Shown in pieces: positions 2,769 to 20,000 of a stretch of 20,000 bases of DNA. Made by a program: the position numbers and the translations under genes. This stretch comes from an uncultured virus (IMG/VR IMGVR_UViG_3300027153_000004) (taxonomy: Duplodnaviria > Heunggongvirae > Uroviricota > Caudoviricetes): the IMG/VR virus record IMGVR_UViG_3300027153_000004; one strand, 5' to 3'. The notes beneath the pieces are model-generated. The model was given only the letters and a program-made list of their open reading frames with translations. It searched no databases and was not told where the DNA came from. Numbering within the stretch: position 1 is the stretch's first letter; each line of letters starts with the position of its first letter.

Positions 2769-3063
2769 GAAGGAAGATCTTCCAGCCACCCATCGTTGCC
2801 AAATTGAATTTGCGAGCATCACGCTCGTAGCCTGAGCCAGTTACGTGACGGCCACGATTGAACGTGCCGCCTTGTATTTCAATGAGAGAACGTGAGGGCA
2901 GATGAGCGAAGTCTGCCCTGTAACGCTTTGAACGCTTGCTTTTGGCATAGCGCTCTTGAAAATCAGCTTCCCACGTTTCTACGTCGCTGTATTCCCTAAT
3001 CAATGGAAGATCTGGGAAATGAGCCTGCCATAGCCCGAGGAATTGATCTTCAAGAGCGCTCAC
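2701..3063 (-). CDS. Vsr/DUF559-like PD-(D/E)XK endonuclease
   Basis: YRADFA...LIEIQGG...GRH..GSGYERDARKFN.A...GWKIF pattern. Confidence 0.8.
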   Translation of the reverse strand: MSALEDQFLGLWQAHFPDLPLIREYSDVETWEADFQERYAKSKRSKRYRADFAHLPSRSLIEIQGGTFNRGRHVTGSGYERDARKFNLATMGGWKIFLLTTQTAKETFWLERIAAFLRSA

Positions 3064-3066
3064 AAG

Positions 3067-3654
3067 CTATACGGCAGCAAACGTTACGTTAGCGCCTTGG
3101 TTTTGATACTTGCCATTTCCATAGTCACTTCGTGAGTCTTCATTGAGACGGACGAACATGACTTGCACGATGCCTTCGTTGGCATAGATGCGAACGGGAA
3201 AAGCCAGGGGATTAACAATACAAATAGTGAGATGGCCAGACCAGCCAGGCTCAATTGGCGTAACGTTAATGATCGTACCTTGTCGAGCATACGTTGATTT
3301 GCCGTCCGTCAGTCCCATAATGTTAGACGGCATTGTCAGGAGTTCCACACTCACGCCAAGAGCGCAGGAGAACGGCGGAAGGACAAAGAACGTGGAGCCA
3401 TTCTCTTCAATTGGTTCAGCCTCGTACACCAGCTCCTTATTAAAAGCCTTTACGTCTAGCACTTCATCCGTGATGTGGGAATCATTGATGACCATGAACC
3501 CCTTAGGGGATAAACGGAGGTCATACCCTGCATGACTTAAACCGTATGAGAGGGCTTTTGTGCCATTGGGCAGCTCTCTGGTTTTCTCTGCGACGAAAGG
3601 AAAAATAATATCATTTTCAGCAAGAACGCTGATTTCCTTGTCATTAAGAAGCAT
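3067..3654 (-). CDS. dcd: dCTP deaminase
   Basis: LSYGLSHAGYDLRL, GKSTYARQG, NVTPIEPGWSGHLT, IYANEGIVQ, GKYQNQ motifs. Confidence 0.93.
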   Translation of the reverse strand: MLLNDKEISVLAENDIIFPFVAEKTRELPNGTKALSYGLSHAGYDLRLSPKGFMVINDSHITDEVLDVKAFNKELVYEAEPIEENGSTFFVLPPFSCALGVSVELLTMPSNIMGLTDGKSTYARQGTIINVTPIEPGWSGHLTICIVNPLAFPVRIYANEGIVQVMFVRLNEDSRSDYGNGKYQNQGANVTFAAV

Positions 3655-4072: not shown

Positions 4073-4837
4073 TCAAGCTCCACGGTCCATAGAAATTGTT
4101 AAGGGGCGCCCGCCTGGGTAGTGATCAAAGAAGAACTGCTGCACCTTCTGCACCATGATGCCTGCCTGCATAGCAAGCTCTGCTGCCGAAAGACTTACGA
4201 TTTGCGCTTCCTGGCCGTTACCAGTGTCGGGATCGTAAATAGCAATGGCGCAATGTGCTTCATTGACTTCGATGTCATACATCTGTTCAATGGCTTGCAC
4301 GTAGGCACCAAGCTGCATGCGGTAATCGGCCAGTTGAGTGTCAGGCTTTTCCTTGTAGCTCGTCTTCCAATCAAGCAAGGCATACGCCCCGCTGTTCATC
4401 TTGGCGAGCATATCGAACGTGCCTGAATAGCCAATTTCTTGCGCAGGATCGTACCAGGCAATGGCGCTTTCAACGAGCAGCGGACTATCCACTCGCTCAA
4501 GAAAGCCAACAATGCTTTCAAAGTAGGGGACGTAATTCTCGTGCGAATCGAGGTGGGTTTGAATGTCTTCACCATTCCAGAGGTCTTCTAGAACACCGTG
4601 AAGCCAATTGCCTCGATCCACAGCATTACGAGTGCGACGATTAGCTTCTTCATCGCCCACTTTCCTGCGCCAATTCATGAGCGCTGCAATCTTGCCAGGC
4701 GATGAACACGCGCTCGCAATAGTCGTCACAGAGGGCAAAACACACCCTGCGGGAACATTGGGAAAATCGTCGCAAACGTAATAGCGCTTCTTGTTCAGTT
4801 GGAGCCTGTTGGGTTCGTAGCGGGGAAACGCTGGCAT
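4073..4837 (-). CDS. PD-(D/E)XK exonuclease (RecB/Cas4-like phage nuclease)
   Basis: LPSVTTI, WRRKVG, RGNWLH, YSGTFD, LLDWKTS, QLGAY motifs; ATG at 4837 preferred over the upstream start at 4873. Confidence 0.88.
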   Translation of the reverse strand: MPAFPRYEPNRLQLNKKRYYVCDDFPNVPAGCVLPSVTTIASACSSPGKIAALMNWRRKVGDEEANRRTRNAVDRGNWLHGVLEDLWNGEDIQTHLDSHENYVPYFESIVGFLERVDSPLLVESAIAWYDPAQEIGYSGTFDMLAKMNSGAYALLDWKTSYKEKPDTQLADYRMQLGAYVQAIEQMYDIEVNEAHCAIAIYDPDTGNGQEAQIVSLSAAELAMQAGIMVQKVQQFFFDHYPGGRPLTISMDRGA

Positions 4838-5572: not shown

Positions 5573-6526
5573 CTACTGCTTTTTTGCGACGAAAGCTTTC
5601 ATGCCATCAATAATGGCAGCAGTATCTTCAAGGCCACGCACGGCATTGATTTCTTCAGTCATTTCAGCTTTGCTAATGGCAATTTGCTCTTGCTTTGCCC
5701 ATAGCGTCATCATTGCTGCGACGACGTTTCCGAAGGCTTGCCAGCTTTTGACTTCCGTGGCGCGAGCAAGTCCAATGCTTTCAAGAGCAGCTTTACCTGC
5801 AGCCATAGAAGCTTTCTCGTCGCCATAGTTCAACGGATTGGCTTTACACACTGCTGTAAGAGCTGCTTTTGCGTCGAAAGGCTCACTGGTCCCTGTATCG
5901 GCGGCGGCAGTAGGCCCTTCTTCTCCAACATCAGAAGTGCCACCAGTAGTGGCCGTCGCAGCCTTCTTGGCCGCACGAGCAGGCTTTGGGGCATCTTGCT
6001 GCAGCGCCGGTTTCGGCGCTTCTTCCTTCGGGATGTCCTCTCCGGCATAGAGACGAAGACCAAGGCCCGTGAACGTAGCGATGGCCTTGACGCTCGCACG
6101 TTGGATGTTGTCACTAATGGCACGGCCATCAAGCTGTTGAATAGAGTTGTGCTTCCTGTCCATCACGGGAAAGACAAGAGCAGGGGTGCGACGAATGCCG
6201 TCCGTGAGGTAGGGGCGAAGGATAAAAGCACCAGGCTCACCGAAGACGGGCCAGCCAAGAGTTTTCTCTTCAAAGGCCACAAAGAGCGTCGGGAAATGCT
6301 CCTTCAAATAGCGGAATGCAAATGGCCAGGACAAATAGGACAAGCCTTTGTAGTCCTTTTCAATGTGAGGGCCAATGTCTGGAGTGTCATACGCAGCTTT
6401 AAAAGCTTCGGCGCTGATTTCCAGCGGGGTGAAGATGCCGTTGTAACGGTCGAGCATTGCTGCTTTTGCGGAGTCTTCCATGCTGGAAAAGTCGGACGGA
6501 GAATAAGTGAAGATAGTGTGGTTCAT
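5573..6526 (-). CDS. sak: Sak-family (DUF1071, Rad52-like) single-strand annealing protein
   Basis: KGLSYLSWPFAF, FPVMDRKHNSI, IQRASVKAIATFTGLGLRLYAGEDIP; Ala/Pro linker then C-terminal helical domain. Confidence 0.85.
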   Translation of the reverse strand: MNHTIFTYSPSDFSSMEDSAKAAMLDRYNGIFTPLEISAEAFKAAYDTPDIGPHIEKDYKGLSYLSWPFAFRYLKEHFPTLFVAFEEKTLGWPVFGEPGAFILRPYLTDGIRRTPALVFPVMDRKHNSIQQLDGRAISDNIQRASVKAIATFTGLGLRLYAGEDIPKEEAPKPALQQDAPKPARAAKKAATATTGGTSDVGEEGPTAAADTGTSEPFDAKAALTAVCKANPLNYGDEKASMAAGKAALESIGLARATEVKSWQAFGNVVAAMMTLWAKQEQIAISKAEMTEEINAVRGLEDTAAIIDGMKAFVAKKQ

Positions 6527-6798
6527 TCAATTGAAGCCACTGCTTTGTAACCAAAACCACGAGGTTGATATTCGCCATACATGATGACAAACATCTTGTC
6601 TGGGTTTTCGTTCTTGGTGATAAGACTGTCACCAGGGAGAGGCCAGTCATTAATCACCCTCACATCAGTGGGCTCTTCAAGGTATTCAGGATCGTAGTTT
6701 TCAGAAATGACGCCTTCTTCCCATAGAATCTTCACTTCAGAATCGGGATGCTCAAGAAGAAACTCTTCGCAGGCAAGTTTAAGCTGAGAAACCTTCAT
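6523..6798 (-). CDS. Hypothetical acidic phage protein
   Basis: 91-aa ORF, ATGA-coupled to sak. Confidence 0.7.
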   Translation of the reverse strand: MKVSQLKLACEEFLLEHPDSEVKILWEEGVISENYDPEYLEEPTDVRVINDWPLPGDSLITKNENPDKMFVIMYGEYQPRGFGYKAVASIE

Positions 6799-7024
6799 AG
6801 TTTTCGATGGTGATGTCAGAAATGGAATAATCCTCGATCATGGAAAAAGCACCATCAGAAAGAGTGGCGCTACCTTCCCAGATGGGAGTGGAGCGAATGA
6901 GACGCTCCACTGTTTCACTCAGGCTTTGCCTTGCATCATGAGCGATGTTCTTCAGATGGGCGTAGGCAGTATCAGTGAGGGTGAAGTGGCGGCTCTTCTT
7001 TAGCTCGCCGTGATCAATGGTCAT
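6779..7024 (-). CDS. Ribbon-helix-helix (CopG-like) DNA-binding protein
   Basis: KKSRHFTLTDTAYAHLKNIAHDARQSLSETVERLIR fits the RHH beta-alpha-alpha pattern; ATG at 7024. Confidence 0.7.
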   Translation of the reverse strand: MTIDHGELKKSRHFTLTDTAYAHLKNIAHDARQSLSETVERLIRSTPIWEGSATLSDGAFSMIEDYSISDITIENYEGFSA

Positions 7025-7088
7025 AGAACAGAGGGCCGAGAAGGTAACCAATGCTGAAACCGATGATGGCGGCCAGCAAGAGTTCCAT
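7014..7088 (-). CDS. 24-aa hydrophobic peptide (MELLLAAIIGFSIGYLLGPLFYDH)
   Basis: Manual translation; AACC-ATG start context as in other genes; first ORF after the leftward promoter. Confidence 0.45.
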   Translation of the reverse strand: MELLLAAIIGFSIGYLLGPLFYDH

Positions 7089-7231: not shown

Positions 7232-9247
7232 ATGGCTTTTTCCATTCTTGAACACCTCGCCAAACTGGAGCCGAGCGACCATGCAGGCAAATACATCTGC
7301 CCTGCGTGCGGTGGCAACGACCTGTCCGTGAACGAAGGGAACGGAGCATACAACTGCTTCAATGACGACAGTCCGAAGCATCGTGCAGAAATTCGTAACA
7401 TTCTTGCTCCTCTAGAGCGCTGGGAACGTCCCATGCGCGAAGCAAAACGCTATTCGTTCCCCTATCAAAATCGCAATCGCGAAGACGTGATAGTCGTCAC
7501 GCGAGATGACACTTCTGGCAAGAAAAGCATTTCGCAAGACTATCCCACTGCCAATAATGTAAGTGGCAAGCGTTCTGAAATTGTCAAACAACTTCGCAAG
7601 AACGTTCTTCCCTATCGCTATTACGATGCCATTGAAGCATCAGCAGCTTCAGGCCTGCCCATCTTCATTGTTGAAGGCGAACTGACTGCTGATAGGCTTT
7701 GGGAAATCGGCCTGCCTTCTAGCACGTTTCTTGGTGGCAGCGGACAATATCGTGCGAACGGTGACTATTCGCAACTGTTTCGCGGGCAGAAAGTAGTTCT
7801 ATGTCCTGATCGTGATGAGCCTGGCGTGGCTCTCATGAAGGAGGTGGCTGCAGACAATCCCAATGCGCAATGGTGCTACGCGGATCCAAGCAGCTTTGAA
7901 TGGGACAATCTGCCTCAGAAAGGAGGCTATGACTTAGCCGACTGGCTTGATGATGGTGCAGATCAAGATGCCATTCTTTCATCCATCGTCTCAAAGGATA
8001 GGCACGAAGGGAAAGACGGGCTCCCTTCTTACGAGGAGATCATTGGCACGTTTGAGCGCATGGTTGGTCTCTACAACAACGATGCCCGCATTGCCTATGA
8101 AGCTCGCCAATGGATGGATGCTCATGGCGTCAAGCTGAATTCACAAGAAATCGACAAGCTGCTTTCTGAAGCACGCGGTCGCGTACATGGCAAAGAGGAA
8201 ATGGAAATCCTCGATGCAAAAGCAATTGCACAGTCTGAAGACTCAAGGAAGTGGACTATTGCTGGCATTCTTCCTGAAAGTAGCGTGATGCTGCTAGCTG
8301 CAGCTCCCGGAAGTGGCAAGAGCACAATCGTCTACAACTGGGCTTTGCACGTTGCCACTGGTAAAGATTGGAGCAATCGCCGTTGCAAGAAAGGGAAAGT
8401 GCTCATCATTCAATGCGACGAGCCAGTTGTTGATGCTGCAGAAAAGCTTCAAATTATTGGCTACGACGATGATGCACTAGGCAATGGTCAGATTGATTTC
8501 ATTGATCGCTGGCGCTTTAGTAACATCCCCCAGCTCCTTTCTTACGTGCAGCGCCACCAGCCACAGCTCATCATGATTGATAGTCTCACTTCATGCTTGG
8601 CTGGCATGGATGTAGATCTCATCCGTTCTGATGCTGGTAATTGCATTTACGAACTGCGCGACATTGCCAATCAATATGGTTGCTCCATTGTCATCCTTCA
8701 CCACTTGAATAAAAGTGGTGGTATTCGTGATAGCTCCAGCTTTGAAGCCAACGTTAGTGAAGTGGTGAAACTCTATCGCACTGACAATAATCCTGATTCA
8801 ACGCAGTTCATGTTTGAATGGACCAAGAGCCGAAGTGGCTTAGCTGGTAAGCATTTCATGCAGCGTGATCCTGCCACTTATGGCTGGTATTACAAAGGGC
8901 CTGCAGTGGGTGGCAATGAGAGCATGGATAATCTCGTCAATATGATCAACTCTCGCAAGCACGAGCGTTTCGATAGGAAGGCTGCTGCTAATGCTTCTGG
9001 CTCATGGGACACGGTAAGCGTGGGACGTTTGCTGGAAGTGGCACGTCGTCAAGGCTTGATTGACACCAGCTTCATTGTTGGTCCCAATGGTGAACGCACC
9101 AGGATGTACCAAAGCTGGGCTTATGAAGCTCCAGATGTTGATTTTGAGCCTGTTCCCGCTCAGGAAGAAGCTCCCCAAGAAGAGCCTGTTCCCATTGTTC
9201 CCAATGAAAGTCTTCCCGAAGGGGAAGACGATGATGAGTGGTTCTGA
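7232..9247 (+). CDS. Primase-helicase fusion (Zn-binding domain, TOPRIM, RepA/AAA_25 helicase)
   Basis: YICPACGG...YNCF; IFIVEGE..AD; CPDRDEPG; GYDLADW; Walker A AAPGSGKS; Walker B LIMIDS; ILHHLNK; KSR; acidic tail DDDEWF. Confidence 0.92.
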   Translation: MAFSILEHLAKLEPSDHAGKYICPACGGNDLSVNEGNGAYNCFNDDSPKHRAEIRNILAPLERWERPMREAKRYSFPYQNRNREDVIVVTRDDTSGKKSISQDYPTANNVSGKRSEIVKQLRKNVLPYRYYDAIEASAASGLPIFIVEGELTADRLWEIGLPSSTFLGGSGQYRANGDYSQLFRGQKVVLCPDRDEPGVALMKEVAADNPNAQWCYADPSSFEWDNLPQKGGYDLADWLDDGADQDAILSSIVSKDRHEGKDGLPSYEEIIGTFERMVGLYNNDARIAYEARQWMDAHGVKLNSQEIDKLLSEARGRVHGKEEMEILDAKAIAQSEDSRKWTIAGILPESSVMLLAAAPGSGKSTIVYNWALHVATGKDWSNRRCKKGKVLIIQCDEPVVDAAEKLQIIGYDDDALGNGQIDFIDRWRFSNIPQLLSYVQRHQPQLIMIDSLTSCLAGMDVDLIRSDAGNCIYELRDIANQYGCSIVILHHLNKSGGIRDSSSFEANVSEVVKLYRTDNNPDSTQFMFEWTKSRSGLAGKHFMQRDPATYGWYYKGPAVGGNESMDNLVNMINSRKHERFDRKAAANASGSWDTVSVGRLLEVARRQGLIDTSFIVGPNGERTRMYQSWAYEAPDVDFEPVPAQEEAPQEEPVPIVPNESLPEGEDDDEWF

Positions 9248-9339
9248 CTGTCTCGCAATAGGAGGGAGGCTCTATTGCACAGCCTCCCCGCTGCCTACCG
9301 TAGCGAGCAGCTTTCTTCAGTATAGACAAAAGACTAACG

Positions 9340-9360
9340 GGGGCTCAAGCCCCCTTTTTT
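9340..9360 (+). terminator. Intrinsic terminator after the primase-helicase
   Basis: GGGGC-TCAA-GCCCC followed by a T run; a second hairpin GGGAGGCT...AGCCTCCC lies at 9264-9288. Confidence 0.7.
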
Positions 9361-9702
9361 GTGCCAATTTCCTCACTGGCCCTCTTGTGAAAATTTGGCG
9401 GGGGTGAGTAAACTGGTTCCGGAATGTCCCGCGAGTATCCCAGAGATCTCAGACGAGCATTCCAGGGGGCTACAAGCCTACGCTGCCTGGCCATCCAGAG
9501 CAAGCGGAGCCCCCCAGGGCGAAGCGCCTCGATCATCAGGCCAAGATTCCCTAAAAGGAACAGGCCAGACGAGGCCTCAAACCTCCGCAATGCCGCTCTA
9601 GCCAGAGTGGAGCCCCACAGGGCGGAACGTTCCAGACGAAAGGCAAACAAGCCTTCAAACAAAAAGAACGTTACTAACATTGCAAAGGAAACTACCAAAG
9701 CA

Positions 9703-10502: not shown

Positions 10503-11258
10503 ATGCCTCGTCCTGAAATTGAATTTGCTACGCCTGAAGAAGAAGAGGCTTATGCACGAAAAGCTTTAGCAAAGGCTGGCGTTCCAATTTCACAATACGA
10601 AGCCATTCGTGAGCATAAATCAAAAGGCGGTACAGCCGGTCCTGGCATCTACACCAAAGAGATGCTTGGCGTTAGGCGATGGATGGTGCAGGAGCTTCTT
10701 GCAGCAAAAATGAGCAATCGTCAGATTGCGAATGTTCTTAAACTCAGCAAAGAAACAGTTAATGGTGATCGCCATTTCAACCGCGATCTCTATACGCAAG
10801 AAATCTTGAAGAATCAAGATACGCACAGGGCGCGTCTCTTGAAAGAACAAATGGAGCTAAAAGACTTAGCTCTTCGTAGCTTTGAAAATAGTAAGCGCAA
10901 GAAAGTAGTCACCATTATGGACGGTGGTGACGATGGTAGCAAGGAGATGGTGAAGATTGAAGAAAGTGCTGGCGACGCATCGTTCCTTAACGTGGCCAAG
11001 AATTCCCTGGTGGAACAAGCAAAGTTGCTTGGCTTGAACGAAATCAAGCAAGTGGAAAACCAAGACACCTCCTATAGGAAATTCCTGAAAGATTTGTCTT
11101 CCACCATTGAAAAGGAGAAGGAAGCCAAAGCAACGGAAGAACGCCGAAGCAATTCTCTTCCTGCGTCTGCTGAGACTATTAGCTTCGATGCAGAACCAGA
11201 AAACGAGCCACTTCCTGACGCCATGCCTTTACAAACAATTAATGAAGATGACTATTGA
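10503..11258 (+). CDS. HTH protein, putative terminase small subunit
   Basis: HTH MSNRQIANVLKLSKETVNGD; helical region; AGDASFL...EQAKLLGL resembles TerS-like proteins; acidic tail. Confidence 0.55.
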   Translation: MPRPEIEFATPEEEEAYARKALAKAGVPISQYEAIREHKSKGGTAGPGIYTKEMLGVRRWMVQELLAAKMSNRQIANVLKLSKETVNGDRHFNRDLYTQEILKNQDTHRARLLKEQMELKDLALRSFENSKRKKVVTIMDGGDDGSKEMVKIEESAGDASFLNVAKNSLVEQAKLLGLNEIKQVENQDTSYRKFLKDLSSTIEKEKEAKATEERRSNSLPASAETISFDAEPENEPLPDAMPLQTINEDDY

Positions 11259-13475: not shown

Positions 13476-13719
13476 CTTCCGAGCGCTGTGCGCCCGCATG
13501 GCTGACGAGCTGGACCATTACCGGCAGCTTTTGATGGATGACCGACGCGAAGCACATGCGTTGGCGACAGAAGCCCGCGCCGCACTTGCTCAGCCCAAGC
13601 CGCCGAGCTTGAAGGAGCAGGCGCTTGCATTGATAAGCCACGATCCTGAGAATCAACCCTTCCTAAGTGAGAAGGGTATTGCGATCATCCGCCGCGCTCT
13701 TGAATCCCTGCCTGAGTAA
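13468..13719 (+). CDS. Cyanophage-type hypothetical protein (MTDFRALCA...ARAALAQP..PSLKEQAL...IRRALESLPE)
   Basis: ATG at 13468; modular motifs recalled from picocyanophage accessory genes. Confidence 0.7.
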   Translation: MTDFRALCARMADELDHYRQLLMDDRREAHALATEARAALAQPKPPSLKEQALALISHDPENQPFLSEKGIAIIRRALESLPE

Positions 13720-13961: not shown

Positions 13962-14204
13962 ATGACAAAACTTACACCCGCTGCAGAAGCAGTCCACAAT
14001 GCTTTTTGGTCTGGGCATGAGTATCCAGATAGTCTCAGCAATGAAGATCTTGCTGCTGCTCTTCGTGCTGCAGTTGATGAGGTGATCTCGCCTGTACCAC
14101 CACCTTGTTCAGATTCTGATGAATACCAACGAGGTTTTCTAGCCGCTCACATTAAATATCGAACGCTACTCCTTATTCTTGCCGACGAACTAGAAACCCA
14201 GTAG
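13962..14204 (+). CDS. Cyanophage-type hypothetical protein (LTPAAEAV...LAAALRAAVDEV...LADELE)
   Basis: 80-aa ORF with a recurrent phage helical motif. Confidence 0.7.
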   Translation: MTKLTPAAEAVHNAFWSGHEYPDSLSNEDLAAALRAAVDEVISPVPPPCSDSDEYQRGFLAAHIKYRTLLLILADELETQ

Positions 14205-14265
14205 TCCGATCAACTAATCATCAATTATCAGGATTTCCAATAAACGCCATTTATCAAGAATCCTG

Positions 14266-14433
14266 CTAAAGCCCCGTAAGGGGCTTTTTCTTTGCCCAAG
14301 TGGTATCGCCAGGAAGAGGTTCAGTGGCATATTCAAACGTATCGTAATCTGGCTCATTGCGAGGATCATACATTTCCCCGCTTGCCATCCATCGCTTAAG
14401 CCTTTCCCTTTCCTGCTCTGCAGAAAGCTTCAT
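14266..14433 (-). CDS. 55-aa hypothetical protein (MKLSAEQERERLKRWMASGEMYDPRNEPDYDTFEYATEPLPGDTTWAKKKPLTGL)
   Basis: Manual translation; protein-like composition; fills an otherwise empty interval. Confidence 0.6.
   Translation of the reverse strand: MKLSAEQERERLKRWMASGEMYDPRNEPDYDTFEYATEPLPGDTTWAKKKPLTGL
14268..14289 (+). terminator. Intrinsic (possibly bidirectional) terminator
   Basis: AAAGCCCC-GTAA-GGGGCTTTTT between convergent genes. Confidence 0.75.
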
Positions 14434-14519
14434 GATCGGCTGATCTTGTATTGGTCGAGTCTAGCTAGCAAGGTATGAGAGCTTGTTGCACAAGCTCCCA
14501 CTGTGCAACAGTGGCCAAG

Positions 14520-14728
14520 CAAAAGAAAAGGGGCCTTACAGCCCCTTTTCTTCACACCCTCCGATGCCCCTTTCCCTAAAGATACAAGGGAGATGATGCG
14601 CCTCGCAGGAGACCATGCAAAAACTCCTTGGCTAAGCCATACGGCTTTGCCCGCATCATCAGAGGCGTCCACCCTCACGGCTCGCCCAAAGACGAGAGCA
14701 GCAATTAAGCCGCTAGGACCGAGTGCTT
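14520..14728 (-). ncRNA. Candidate structured non-coding RNA (~210 nt)
   Basis: Extended -10 TGTTATGCT at 14733-14741, at least seven helices with G-U pairs favouring the minus strand, 3' intrinsic terminator. Confidence 0.55.
14521..14552 (-). terminator. Intrinsic terminator ending the RNA candidate (may be bidirectional)
   Basis: Perfect 12-bp inverted repeat AAGAAAAGGGGC-N6-GCCCCTTTTCTT. Confidence 0.75.
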
Positions 14729-14839
14729 CAAAAGCATAACACACCTCGTCGGCTCGGCAGCAACGATTGAATTCATGGCACAATGGGCATTGCCTTGTCG
14801 GAGACGACTTGGCCCTCGCTAGTTCTTTCGTACTATTTG

Positions 14840-15190
14840 ATGAAACGTTTCCTTTTCTCCCTCCTGCTGCTCTGCCCCTTACAAGCGCAAGCAGCAACAC
14901 TCCAATGTGGTCGCGCCTCGCACTACGGCATTGGCGACGGTTATCACGGACAACGAGCTGCTAACGGCTCTCGCTTTGACGCTTACGCCCTCACTGCTGC
15001 TCACCCCTGGCTTCCATTTGGCACAAAAGTGCTGGTAAAGAATCGCAACAATGGAAAGTCAGTGGTAGTGACAATCAATGATCGAGGCCCATACTACGGG
15101 GGCCGCATCTTGGACTTGTCCTACGGCAGCTTCTCTCGCATTGCTTCTCCTTCTCAAGGCGAAGCCTCCATCTGCATTTCAAAGCTATGA
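14840..15190 (+). CDS. rlpA: RlpA-like (double-psi beta-barrel) lytic transglycosylase with signal peptide
   Basis: [18 protein letters not shown] signal; [40 protein letters not shown]. Confidence 0.9.
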
Positions 15191-15384
15191 AAGACGCAGC
15201 TTCATTCCTGCTAGTGAGCCTGATCTTTGGGCTCGGTGCTTTTGCCATTGCAGCCTCCCCCAATGTGCTCCCTAACAAGGAAGGCCTTGACAAGTGCATG
15301 CAGCTCCACCCTGAGCGCTACTGCCGCATTGCCAACGGCTTCCCCGTGGAAAGGCTTGACAGCCCGGTTCAACTGAGCCTATAG
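15187..15384 (+). CDS. Small secreted/membrane protein
   Basis: N-terminal hydrophobic helix, Cys pair ([11 protein letters not shown]); ATGA-coupled to rlpA. Confidence 0.65.
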
Positions 15385-17243: not shown

Positions 17244-17350
17244 CCTTTGTAACGAAATATCAACGCCAGCAGCGGGGCCGTAAGGCCCTGCTTTGCCATG
17301 CTGTATAGTTCTCTCATGAGCGGCGACGCTCCTCGTTTAAGGAACCAACC

Positions 17351-17641
17351 ATGACCTCCTATTCCATCCTCTGCACCAACTCCAGCAATGGCGGTCAGTG
17401 CGAGCTTCTCATTGATGCTGCTTCTCCCGAGCAGGCTCAGCAGCACGTTGCAGATTCCCGCCCCTCCTACATCATCAAAACCATTGAGCCTGTAGAGCGT
17501 AAGTTCGTCTGCTATGGCTTCTGCCGTAGAAATCAGCGCAACGACGCTCTTGGCTATATCACTTTTTCTGCTGAGCAAGCACGTTCCATTTGCCAGCAGC
17601 TCCACCCTGACTTCGCCATTGATCGCGTTGAGCTTGCGTGA
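17351..17641 (+). CDS. Hypothetical protein with two tandem copies of a small domain
   Basis: AASPEQAQQHVADSRPSYIIKTIE versus TFSAEQARSICQQLHPDFAIDRVE. Confidence 0.75.
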   Translation: MTSYSILCTNSSNGGQCELLIDAASPEQAQQHVADSRPSYIIKTIEPVERKFVCYGFCRRNQRNDALGYITFSAEQARSICQQLHPDFAIDRVELA

Positions 17642-17727
17642 AGCTTTGTAACGACGGGGCCGATCACGGCCCCTTTCGGACTATTGTTCTCTCATGAAGC
17701 GCGAGCTTCCCTCGATTTTTTAAAACC

Positions 17728-17928
17728 ATGAGCACCCTGCCTCTCGCCACCCACACCTACGCCGTCACCATCGAGCACCGTTACGGCGACATCTATCTGA
17801 ACTGGCAAACCATTAACCTTGATGCCACTAGCGAAGAAGAAGCTAAAACGCTGGCTGAGCATCGTTTTCCTGAATCCTGGAACGTGAAGGCTATTCGTGC
17901 TGTCCGTCATGAATGGGCTGCGCTCTGA
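17728..17928 (+). CDS. Hypothetical protein
   Basis: AAAACC-ATG after a promoter module. Confidence 0.75.
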   Translation: MSTLPLATHTYAVTIEHRYGDIYLNWQTINLDATSEEEAKTLAEHRFPESWNVKAIRAVRHEWAAL

Positions 17929-17951
17929 TTTCTCTTGTTTCTCCTTTGATC

Positions 17952-18176
17952 ATGCCTTTTCCTATTTCTTTCGTTTCTGAAGATGAATATGGAGTGTCTT
18001 ATACAGCACGCACATTCCATTCCGTTGAAGAACTACACGATGAAATCAGAGCTTTAGAAGAACTGCTTGATGAAAGCTCAGTCGGCAGGGGCTATGTCAT
18101 CCAGGTAGCTCTAGACCAGCTCAAACAACTTGCCCACGAAATCGAAGACGAGCCCCTTCCCACTTGCGACCAATGA
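17952..18176 (+). CDS. Acidic hypothetical protein
   Basis: ATG 17952; ATGA-coupled to the next gene. Confidence 0.65.
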   Translation: MPFPISFVSEDEYGVSYTARTFHSVEELHDEIRALEELLDESSVGRGYVIQVALDQLKQLAHEIEDEPLPTCDQ

Positions 18177-18475
18177 TCACTACCATCCGTACCTACCAAG
18201 ACAACGGCCCGTATTTCTCCTGCACAAGAGGCAGCTACCAAGCTGCCTCGCTCCAGCAGCTCATCTTCCACGTGAGACAGGCGATGGAGGACCGTGAGCA
18301 CGTCATTGGCATTTACGGCCCCGATGGGGCCTGCAAGGGCATCTGGCAGCTCGATATTGAAGGGCACGTGGACAGTGCTGGCGATACCATCGTGGATCAC
18401 GAGGCCTATGAACTGCTCAGGCCCAGCACCAAGAGCAAATGGGCCTGGGAGTTCCTGCAGAGGCAATTGGCTTAA
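18173..18475 (+). CDS. Hypothetical protein
   Basis: ATG 18173 within track ORF 18164-18475. Confidence 0.7.
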   Translation: MITTIRTYQDNGPYFSCTRGSYQAASLQQLIFHVRQAMEDREHVIGIYGPDGACKGIWQLDIEGHVDSAGDTIVDHEAYELLRPSTKSKWAWEFLQRQLA

Positions 18476-18499
18476 TTATTTCATTGGAGACGATTAATC

Positions 18500-18658
18500 A
18501 TGATTCTCATTGATTTCTTTGATGAAGCCTCTTGCAAAGGCACTGAACTCATTGAAGGCTGGTATTTCTACGATGATTCTGATGATTCAGTGGTAGGAGG
18601 GCCTTTTTCCAATGAAGAAGCCGCCATAAAGGCGGCGTTTGATGGGCACGGCTGGTGA
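18500..18658 (+). CDS. 52-aa acidic protein (MILIDFFDEASCKGTELIEGWYFYDDSDDSVVGGPFSNEEAAIKAAFDGHGW)
   Basis: Manual translation; upstream GGAG; GWY...GPF..EE.A motif. Confidence 0.7.
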   Translation: MILIDFFDEASCKGTELIEGWYFYDDSDDSVVGGPFSNEEAAIKAAFDGHGW

Positions 18659-18659
18659 T

Positions 18660-18731
18660 GTATCTGGGGTCCGGCTGGAAGCGTATAGGGTCCGGCTAGC
18701 TCCGTATCTAGGGTCCGGCTAGGGGCGTATC
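18660..18731 (+). repeat. Three 21-23 bp direct repeats, GTAT-N(1-3)-GGGTCCGGCT-(A/G)G
   Basis: GGGTCCGGCT exact at 18667, 18688 and 18711; partial fourth GTATC at 18727. Confidence 0.9.
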
Positions 18732-18794
18732 ATGGTTTCTTCACATTGTTTCATAACGCTACCGTTTTATGCTTTTATGCGCATAACCGCATAG

Positions 18795-18826
18795 TAGTGC
18801 GTCTGTACTATAGTACACCTGTATTT
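18795..18826. promoter_or_regulatory. Two abutting cyanobacterial LexA-like boxes
   Basis: AGTGC-GTC-TGTACT (18796-18809) and AGTAC-ACC-TGTATT (18812-18825), each one mismatch from AGTAC-N3-TGTACT. Confidence 0.5.
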
Positions 18827-18855
18827 GTGCCAATCTTCGGATCGTCCCTGATTAT

Positions 18856-19234
18856 GATACGTACCAGTATCGGCAGCCGCCTGCGATCCGCAGCCGTATC
18901 GGCAAGCGGTCCTGATCTGCGTTCGTAGCAGCTCACGCCAGTGATCACGATCGTGATCAGCCAGCCACTGCCGTTCTGCGTTGGTAGCGGCCTGCGCCAG
19001 TGATCAGCATTTTGATCAGCCAGCCCTACCGTTCCGCGTTCGTGCGGCCTGCGCAGCGTGATCAGCAGCGCAGGCCCTGGCCCCAATCGTTCCGCATCCG
19101 CAACGTCAGGCGGGGCCGTTCCGCATCGATGCCAGCCCCTGGCCTTTGTTCCGCATCCGCACGGCCTGCCCCTGCTGATCAGCAGCACGACCCCCAGGCC
19201 GTGCCCTTCCGCATCCGCATCAATGGACGGCGTG
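18856..19234 (+). repeat. Degenerate 29-bp-period tandem array, 12-13 units, GATC-rich
   Basis: G(A/T)TCNGC-type unit starts at 18885, 18914, 18943, 18973, 19002, 19031, 19060, 19089, 19118, 19148, 19177, 19206. Confidence 0.85.
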
Positions 19235-19474
19235 CCGATTGGCCTAGTTGCCAAAGCGGCAGGCGATGCCGTACGTGCGTGCGCGATCATCTCTTTTTTG
19301 CTTTGCACGGCATGGCAGGCGCTGGCCCGTACCATCCCGCAGGGGCCAAAGCCCCTAGCTAGTAGGCCACCTATGGGAGTGGCCTAGTTGCCCCTGGCTT
19401 TACCTTGCCTGCTAGGGGCTGCAGGCCTTTTAATGGGGGCACTGGCGCGAGCCAGCCCCTTTGCACTTGAAACC

Positions 19475-20000
19475 ATGCCCGCCAACACCGCTCCCGCTGG
19501 CCCCGCCGCCTATCTGCAGGCCGTGGCCACCAAAGCCACCAAGGCCCAAGGCCTGAAGCGCCCAACCCTGACAGCCCTGCAGCAGGCCGCCAAAGCCCTG
19601 GCCCTGCCCGTCCACATCAGTTACGCCACGTACGGCTACCACGTGCGCTGCGGCGACTGCTTGAGCCCTGCCAGCAACCTGGCTGAGGTTGCCGCATGCA
19701 TGCTGCGCAGCCTTGAAAAGGCCTGGGCTGTCAAGCCTGTAGCCCGTGGCCCTCTCCTGCCAGGCGAGGCCCCTGCAGCCCCTGCCCACACGCTGCGCAG
19801 CCCTGCCGAGCGTGTGGCCGATGAGATCCTGGAAGCGCTGGCCGAGCTAAGCGCACGGCCTGAGCCCGAACTACCCGAACTGCCCACGCGTTTCACGTGC
19901 CGGCCTGGCCAGGGTCAAACCGAACCCTGGGCCAAGCTGCAGCCAATGGTCACGTACAGCCAGCCCCAGCAGCAGCCTCAGCAGGCCCCTGCCCCTGTAG
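19475..20000 (+). CDS. Ala/Pro-rich hypothetical protein, truncated by the window end (MPANTAPAGPAAYLQAVATKATKAQGLKRP...)
   Basis: AAACC-ATG at 19475, open frame to 20000 with GC3-rich codons; absent from the ORF track because it has no stop. Confidence 0.75.
   Translation, partial: MPANTAPAGPAAYLQAVATKATKAQGLKRPTLTALQQAAKALALPVHISYATYGYHVRCGDCLSPASNLAEVAACMLRSLEKAWAVKPVARGPLLPGEAPAAPAHTLRSPAERVADEILEALAELSARPEPELPELPTRFTCRPGQGQTEPWAKLQPMVTYSQPQQQPQQAPAPV

Follow-up and report, generated by a model that had tools for sequence, protein, structure and literature searches.

The stretch of DNA analysed here (the window, 20,000 nucleotides) is the end of a 50,165-bp viral contig from IMG/VR (IMGVR_UViG_3300027153_000004) that is estimated to be 70% complete. 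At positions 18856–19234 it carries a non-coding array of 13 units of 29–30 bp. In related phages the array keeps its place in the genome and, in its alignable orthologues, more of its sequence than the neighbouring DNA does; the period of 29–30 bp recurs even in arrays too diverged to align, and the cluster of repeated sites to which the array belongs occupies a single locus per genome. We propose that the array is a double-stranded DNA signal, and neither a gene nor an RNA array. The reading we favour, with a probability of about 0.5, is that it forms a phased protein-binding scaffold within a unique origin or regulatory hub.

A preliminary description of this DNA had listed 12 unit heads together with a weaker first unit at 18856, which has GTATCGGCA in common with the next unit; the letters and coordinates of all of these were verified in the sequence. 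Successive units are spaced by 29, 29, 29, 30, 29, 29, 29, 29, 29, 30, 29 and 29 bp. Their heads have the consensus G-W-T-C-N-G-C-A-T-C, and three types of unit can be distinguished: GATAC..GTATC (units 1 and 2), TGATCAGCA and GTTCCGCATC. Autocorrelation over 18856–19234 gave an identity of 0.431 at lag 29 compared with 0.276 for shuffled sequence (z 6.4), and higher-order peaks at lags of 58 (z 5.6), 59 (z 4.3), 88 (z 4.6) and 117 (z 8.4); in 500 mononucleotide shuffles the largest z at any lag was 4.3. Under a doublet-preserving shuffle, lag 29 reached a z of 6.6, with a 95th percentile of 3.1 for the maximum z. Both the ~29-bp period and the 58-bp higher-order repeat claimed for the array are therefore significant against shuffled sequence, and a further peak at 117 is added to them. 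Tandem Repeats Finder (TRF), the other check proposed at the outset, reported the higher-order unit alone, with a length of 59 bp (18916–19067, 2.6 copies, 82% matches); it missed the 29-bp units because these are too dissimilar to each other. The same higher-order structure is seen in pairs of repeats lying 59 nt apart (18916–18966 and 18975–19025, 82%) and 117 nt apart (19031–19102 and 19148–19219, 71%).

Mean pairwise identity among the units is 0.67 at positions 1–10 and 0.39 at positions 11–29, where composition alone would give 0.28. The original picture of fixed heads and drifting tails is borne out as far as the difference between the two parts goes, but the tails are not free-running: they are also biased at unit positions 14, 16, 19 and 23, and about 85% of their letters are kept between orthologues. 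The hexamer TGATCA is concentrated in the array, with six copies in its 401 nt compared with 16 in the remaining 49.8 kb of the contig (a 46-fold enrichment). These six copies span 18942–19181, within 240 bp, and half of the units have none. Symmetry at the level of DNA is also evident in a GATAC-N6-GTATC element and in several inverted repeats.

Relatives of the locus were gathered from viral contigs by means of the 103-aa open reading frame (ORF) upstream of the array (18164–18475). This gave 80 loci at 57–99% identity, many of them near-duplicates and several on contigs of 73–75 kb. In four of them, L018, L019, L084 and L030, the array can be aligned with that of the window. Identity is 412/435 to L018 and 350/378 to L084 (93–95%), whereas the third codon positions of the adjoining 103-aa gene are only 73% (L018) and 70% (L084) identical and the 100-nt bins flanking the array 73–88%. 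Heads change less than tails between orthologous arrays (9.3% versus 15.2%, counts that are not independent of each other), and the 56 nt that follow the last unit (19235–19290) are nearly invariant in five orthologues. The array of L019 is shorter by exactly 117 nt and those of L084 and L030 by 57 nt, losses of whole higher-order units of the kind expected from unequal crossing-over.

Repeat blocks downstream of the 103-aa gene recur in the same series across the related loci (TRF), the array being the third of them (block C). Its unit and period vary by lineage, with lengths of 23 bp (CATTATCACGCTTGCGTTGTTTG), 24–26, 29–30, 34/68, 38 or 49 bp, and the third arrays of other lineages share a vocabulary of TGATCA and TGATAC/GTATCA with that of the window. 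In eight of ten segments containing TGAT motifs (the window, L020, L017, L023, L024, L035, L042 and L076), the top autocorrelation lag was 29, or 30 in L076, each time above the 95th percentile of the shuffles; in the other two (L059 and L063) the top lag was 12, with 29 among the top four. None of the nine segments from outside the window had a blastn match to the window's array, L035 being matched in the first block of the series (block A, 18661–18731) only. One reading of the L020 unit is a composite site of 18 bp joined to a linker of 11–12 nt. Selection on spacing had been suggested from the window alone; diverged relatives with other sequence, the same 29–30-bp period and the same genomic site support it, as do orthologous arrays that are better conserved than neighbouring sites of synonymous type.

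The array does not stand alone. The features of the locus are listed here in order, with a strand where one was assigned.

18620–18636: terminator-like G+C hairpin, GCCGCC-ATAAA-GGCGGC, within the closing codons of the final small ORF of a long + strand early operon.
18660–18731: block A, three iterons of 21–23 bp (..GGGTCCGGCTAG..GCGTATC..); TRF period 23, 3.2 copies.
18732–18795: AT-rich spacer with 37.5% G+C, compared with 62–65% on either side; contains TTTTATGC twice and a TATGC..GCATA palindrome.
18796–18825: block B, two LexA-box-like 14-mers 16 bp apart, AGTGCGTCTGTACT and AGTACACCTGTATT.
18856–19234: block C, the array of 13 units of 29–30 bp, from autocorrelation, TRF and a repeat search.
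19235–19290: conserved tail, GATTGGCCTAGTTGCCAAAGCGGCAGGCGATGCCGTACGTGCG.GCGCGATC, from alignment and a sliding identity profile.
19291–19474, + strand: G+C-rich leader with several hairpins, common only to the long-GP88 lineages L047/48, L065 and L076 (73–76% identity).
19475–20000, + strand: 5' part of a 549-aa ORF for a GP88 protein, complete in the near-identical contig L002 (L002:5990–7639).

Iterons, AT-rich stretch, LexA-box-like tandem and array thus follow one another between two + strand gene blocks, after the long early operon, in this group of cyanosiphoviruses, which resemble Synechococcus phage S-CBS4. The iterons, the LexA-box-like pair and the high-G+C island in which the array lies had no place in the preliminary description. 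The hairpin at 18620–18636 was listed on the − strand by the scan; the same hairpin followed by TTTT is found in the relatives L024 and L018, and it probably acts as a + strand terminator. The block A motif is present two to five times in most relatives, as iterons of 21–23 bp of the form CCGGCTAG..GCGTATC or of the type GGGACT..GC..GCGGTA. The AT-rich stretch of relatives contains TATGCGCATA-type palindromes, and their block B is a 16-bp tandem palindrome, TAGTACAnnnGTACTA. Homology to relatives that lack GP88 ends at about 19290, as does that to L018 and L084. In the contig of the window and in three complete relative genomes (G001, G004 and G005), the iteron expression and the LexA pattern match this locus and no other, but for a single stray iteron match in G005; the unit-head motif GTTCYGCRT also clusters here, with one to three stray matches at other sites of G001, G004 and the contig of the window. 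The array begins a 2.5-kb island of 65–73% G+C in a genome that otherwise has 42–55%. The island comprises the array and the GP88 gene (window 19001–20000, L002:5500–8000) within a phage of ~48% G+C.

The cyanobacterial LexA box is given as RGTACNNNDGTWCB, or AGTACWNWTGTACT, in a published study, where Table 1 has CGTACGCCTGTACT upstream of recA in Synechococcus WH8102 (PMC3091678). The window holds no perfect match to this pattern; it has the two 14-mers of block B, at 18796 and 18812, each with one mismatch, 16 bp apart and 30 nt upstream of the array. Perfect matches are found in 44 of 83 related loci, with 116 on both strands of 734,507 nt when about four would be expected (at the chance rate of 0.10 per 20 kb measured on the window), and they fall mostly in this intergenic region. 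Two of the perfect 14-mers of relatives, AGTACGCCTGTACT and AGTACATCTGTACT, differ in the first letter only from predicted recA boxes of marine Synechococcus. Block B differs from the bacterial boxes in lying in a phage, in its tandem arrangement at 16-bp steps and in the single mismatch of each copy in the window, and the boxes are putative. Taken as sequence matches, the tandem boxes suggest host SOS control of this phage locus. A scan of viral contigs with GTTCCGCATCCGCA gave, among the 80 loci listed out of at least 119 matching stretches, nearly all single, chance-like matches besides the known relatives.

Further sites of this kind were seen in individual relatives. Counterparts of block B lie at L018:6680–6709 and L084:6764–6793, and L081:5783–5982 has about nine 16-bp units by TRF, five of which match the strict LexA pattern. 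Palindromes of the form GATAATGAGAATC..TTCTCATTATC (L065 and L076 at ~3040–3070, L055 at ~4500–4600 and L081 at ~5714–5782) recall the Fur-box consensus, a resemblance that is not established. No such palindrome was seen in the window's locus, and the E. coli-type consensus had no match there or at the corresponding locus of G001, G004 and G005.

In the scaffold that we favour, each 29-bp unit would offer one site to a sequence-specific DNA-binding protein. Units of the TGATCA and GATAC..GTATC types would present it with a palindrome, those of the GTTCCGCATC type with an asymmetric site. Contacts between neighbouring bound proteins would fix the centre-to-centre distance at ~29.2 bp, and the spacing would be held while the letters of the linker drift because adjacent proteins touch. 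At 10.5 bp per turn this distance is ~2.8 turns, which would rotate successive sites by ~80 degrees and bring every fourth site back into phase after 117 bp, or ~11 turns. We infer from this geometry that the DNA would be wrapped by the bound protein, giving a superhelical nucleoprotein body. Its most probable task would be to organise the replication origin region of the phage; next in probability comes control of the downstream operon's promoter in concert with host LexA. Of these two roles, the origin role is a tentative assignment at well under even odds, and promoter gating with LexA is more doubtful again. In a more speculative and improbable version, the array would be a new kind of DNA scaffold, its non-integral phasing of 2.8 turns producing a superhelical body that serves as an origin, or resembles a centromere, under the control of host LexA. 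Its company is origin-like, with iterons of 21–23 bp (about two helical turns) beside a stretch of 37.5% G+C, and the phage encodes a primase/helicase while no DNA polymerase family was matched among the ORFs scanned. A phased protein-binding scaffold was already put forward in the preliminary description and is still the best reading of the array; the packaging role offered with it is not supported, the putative large terminase gene being ~10 kb away.

Several observations weigh against a scaffold of this kind, or against the origin role in particular. No candidate for the binding protein emerged, as a comparison of ORF families with TGATCA-rich loci (83 loci, 3,813 ORFs) gave only effects of near-identical contigs. 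A 29-bp unit is unlike classical origin iterons, which measure about two turns; no DnaA box with up to one mismatch lies in 18400–19500, and no Rep-type initiator family was found in Pfam or PHROGs for 40 ORFs of the window. GC skew has just a local minimum 0–3.5 kb downstream, which the gene blocks can explain. A contig from an RNA library covers 18867–19079, so transcription through the array is possible. The ten TGAT-motif segments were picked by eye, and since L017 and L020 are related the independent cases number fewer than ten. The high identity of orthologous arrays could stem from recent exchange of a cassette between mosaic genomes, and the sliding identity profile does reveal non-homologous blocks near the array. 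Finally, Synechococcus phage S-CBS4 is without the whole repeat module at the equivalent place, which makes the locus dispensable at that position.

Comparison with known arrays of binding sites places the locus close to two groups. Iteron clusters occur at replication origins of phages and plasmids such as lambda ori, P1 oriR/incA, and P4 ori and crr, the latter bound by the P4 primase-helicase. As in these, several families of tandem direct repeats with varying copy number lie in a unique non-coding locus beside an AT-rich stretch, in a phage with a primase/helicase and no polymerase match. Spacing separates the two blocks of the window, for block A at 21–23 bp reaches the 17–23 bp of iterons and the array at 29 bp lies outside it; the array units are also very degenerate and of three types, and neither a cognate Rep gene nor DnaA boxes were recognised. 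The second group comprises the centromere arrays of plasmids, such as sopC of F (43-bp repeats) and parC of R1 or pSK41, which likewise consist of phased tandem sites, each with an inverted repeat, and become wrapped in a complex with a dimeric protein. Here the difference is in the partners, as neither the window nor the 73 ORFs of G004 that were scanned gave a match to a ParA/ParM or ParB/ParR gene. Integrase and plasmid-maintenance families were likewise without a match among the ORFs scanned, and the phage for that reason looks lytic. The locus would work like an iteron or centromere-type array, yet it lacks defining features of each named family.

A simpler view gives the array no part in replication and takes it as an operator or leader array only, downstream of a LexA-gated promoter, with sites through which a phage regulator times the downstream operon (GP88 or, in other relatives, acidic proteins, followed by ribonucleotide reductase). 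This overlaps the promoter-gating version of the scaffold. The LexA-box-like tandem 30 nt upstream of the array, with its perfect counterparts in relatives, fits such an arrangement, as do the position between + strand gene blocks after a terminator-like hairpin and the RNA-library contig over the array. However, a search of 18300–20000 for sigma-70-like promoters returned no sites, one would look for the sites of a phage regulator at several promoters whereas these motifs are confined to one locus, and thirteen sites over 380 bp far exceed the usual need. We consider an operator array without a replication role unlikely.

Less probable still is a neutral minisatellite in a mobile high-G+C cassette, in which the period would be no more than the footprint of unequal crossing-over. 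Such a process would leave behind the changes in copy number seen in L019 (−117 nt) and in L084 and L030 (−57 nt), which remove whole higher-order units; the units are also degenerate, and the array lies where base composition shifts (65% versus 49.5% G+C) in a mosaic neighbourhood. A neutral repeat would not, however, be expected to reach 93–95% identity between orthologues beside third codon positions at 70–73%, nor to keep its heads better than its tails, and the unrelated-looking arrays of other lineages retain both the 29–30-bp period and the TGATCA/GATAC vocabulary.

It is highly unlikely that the array is transcribed and acts as RNA, whether as a structured leader, a protein sponge or a precursor of ~29-nt units. 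The case for it comes from four riverine metatranscriptome runs, searched as assembled contigs, which match the window in patches along its whole length: a 230-nt contig of library X19 matches 18867–19079 without mismatch, and the bin 18621–19285 is covered in three of the four libraries. RNA libraries can hold DNA, though, and Logan contigs give neither strand nor ends. The region does fold better than shuffled sequence, but the opposite strand folds equally well or better (z −3.6 on the + strand, −4.1 on the −), which traces the signal to DNA palindromes; folds of the tail, the leader and the left end were no better than shuffles (z −0.9, −1.4 and −0.2). In L084, the strongest hairpin (19046–19076) has lost its left arm to a 57-nt deletion. 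Rfam, searched at E values up to 1 over 18300–20000, returned four rows at chance level, none of them on the array, and no family of processing enzyme or effector was found nearby (Pfam and PHROG, window ORFs). When the variable parts were searched with up to two mismatches, the 13 tails matched only themselves and their orthologues in the window's own contig, G001, G004 and G005, with no other match in these four genomes. The earlier suggestion of a transcript cut into ~29-nt RNAs is not supported on these grounds. A variant in which the array is transcribed from the LexA-box promoter just upstream during host DNA damage or infection, and in which its repeat/variable RNA serves, with no Cas-like partner, as for example decoys or guides of unit length, seems to us highly improbable; if true, it would make the array the first of a new class of small-RNA arrays in phages.

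The repeat RNAs of type III toxin–antitoxin systems (ToxI, 36 nt) and CRISPR arrays, whose near-identical repeats of 23–47 nt alternate with unique spacers, resemble the array in having a period near 30 nt and units with a conserved and a variable part. They differ from it in the rest, as the conserved part is here just ~10 nt at 67%, cas and toxin genes are absent, the tails have no targets and the symmetry is that of both strands. The array had been described as no recognisable CRISPR, and this stands. For a type III toxin–antitoxin locus, where near-identical repeats of ~36 nt precede a terminator and the gene for an endoribonuclease toxin, the units are too unlike each other (39–67% alike), and the downstream gene is GP88-like or absent.

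Highly improbable, too, is a P1-type packaging site, with a TGATCA cluster that the small terminase would read under the control of GATC methylation. The pac site of P1 lies inside pacA, where seven TGATCA/G hexamers, which carry Dam sites, fall within 161 bp (PMC10028697). The six TGATCA within 240 bp of the array, 46-fold enriched and each carrying GATC, do resemble that dense cluster of hexamers. The array is, however, neither in nor beside a terminase gene: a putative large terminase lies ~10 kb downstream of it in G004, with ribonucleotide reductase genes between. This terminase is a 454-aa − strand ORF without a Pfam match, assigned by synteny, as it occupies the place of terL in S-CBS4. 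No methyltransferase family was found among the ORFs scanned (73 of 96 in G004), and the regular 29-bp register, with half of the units free of TGATCA, is foreign to P1 pac. G004 and G005 both have terminal repeats of 127 bp, but not on the same side of the array; given their equal length and differing position, these are read as assembly overlaps.

The array might lastly be coding sequence of a 175-aa minus-strand ORF (18808–19335), a frame without stops across the array in the window, L018, L084 and L019 when the other five frames have two to seven. The initial argument that a period of 29, not being a multiple of 3, rules out a protein repeat was too hasty, given this frame, open in four orthologues, and indels of 57 and 117 nt, both multiples of 3. 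Its conclusion that the array is non-coding nevertheless holds, and coding is the least credible of the alternatives: changed codons are mostly nonsynonymous (15/19, 20/25 and 27/32), G+C is flat by codon position (0.64/0.59/0.64, versus 0.74/0.56/0.75 in the neighbouring gene), the TGATCA repeat shifts frame from one unit to the next, neither Pfam nor PHROG gave a match, and the excess of substitutions at window positions equal to 2 modulo 3 falls on codon position 2 of the open frame, which lends coding no support.

The gene that follows the array in the window can be separated from it. A GP88 homologue comes after the arrays in 51 of 83 loci, and in two complete genomes, G001 and G004, the same 29-bp array is present with GP88 nowhere in the genome. 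The array is therefore independent of the GP88 gene, which, as far as can be told, is no part of its function. The GP88 domain (PF17338, 37.7 bits; phrog_1617) makes up the C-terminal 360 residues of the 549-aa protein, in which three cysteines are invariant (C-x6-C-x3-C). In an AlphaFold model based on 27 sequences, residues 190–549 are predicted with confidence; in a wide structural search the first 14 neighbours of this model were all radical-SAM enzymes, at Z scores of 5.0–6.2 that lie below the reliable level. In this lineage the protein has an extra N-terminal part of ~185 residues that is missing in most relatives. No sequence match in the PDB and no Foldseek match at E ≤ 0.001 were obtained, no relative was found in the phage isolate collection, 600 candidates in bacterial genomes yielded none that was confirmed, and a literature search returned no paper containing PF17338. 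Where GP88 is absent, two acidic ORFs of ~335 aa without a Pfam family can follow the array instead, as they do in G001 and G004, past a C/T-rich low-complexity stretch (L018:7465–9523, G004 7465–9486).

The other genes of the window include those for an HNH endonuclease, ThyX, dCTP deaminase, a PD-(D/E)XK exonuclease, a Sak annealing protein and the primase/helicase (7232–9247), which is followed by about 25 small + strand ORFs. An HTH-like protein of 251 aa is encoded at 10503–11258, and further small ORFs lie at 6523–7051. Genes for lysis, tail and head are found on the remainder of the contig. S-CBS4 is the sole isolate with similarity, and its gene order is alike. Its record (NC_016766, 69222–69420 and 1–352) opens inside the homologue of the 103-aa gene and then runs straight to ribonucleotide reductase, the repeat-plus-GP88 module being missing. 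The ends of this record were considered as physical termini at the locus, a view ruled out by the opening of the record within the 103-aa homologue and by the plain absence of the module.

The RNA libraries also matched other parts of the window. In the region of a DPBB/lipoprotein-like gene (13966–15295), summed depth was 18–40 in two of the four libraries compared with ~0–4 elsewhere, to which contigs of other organisms may contribute. Contigs of all four libraries match some 30 nt at 13595–13625 and differ in the flanks, which points to a short conserved stretch common to other sequences. The bins 17291–17955 and 19286–19932 had essentially no cover, and low cover there proves nothing.

In literature on cyanophage iterons or LexA boxes, as far as its accessible parts go, we found nothing on the start of replication or the switching of expression in these cyanosiphoviruses. 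The locus described here is the one place in genomes of 73–75 kb at which four kinds of repeated sites are piled up, apparently including operators of the host SOS repressor, and it provides a handle for finding both the origin and the early-to-middle switch of this group. A protein that binds the array would be new. The retention of a 29-bp register in arrays that can no longer be aligned amounts to a natural experiment on the constraint of spacing in nucleoprotein assembly. The LexA boxes, if real, would link the development of these phages to the UV and DNA-damage status of the picocyanobacteria of surface waters.

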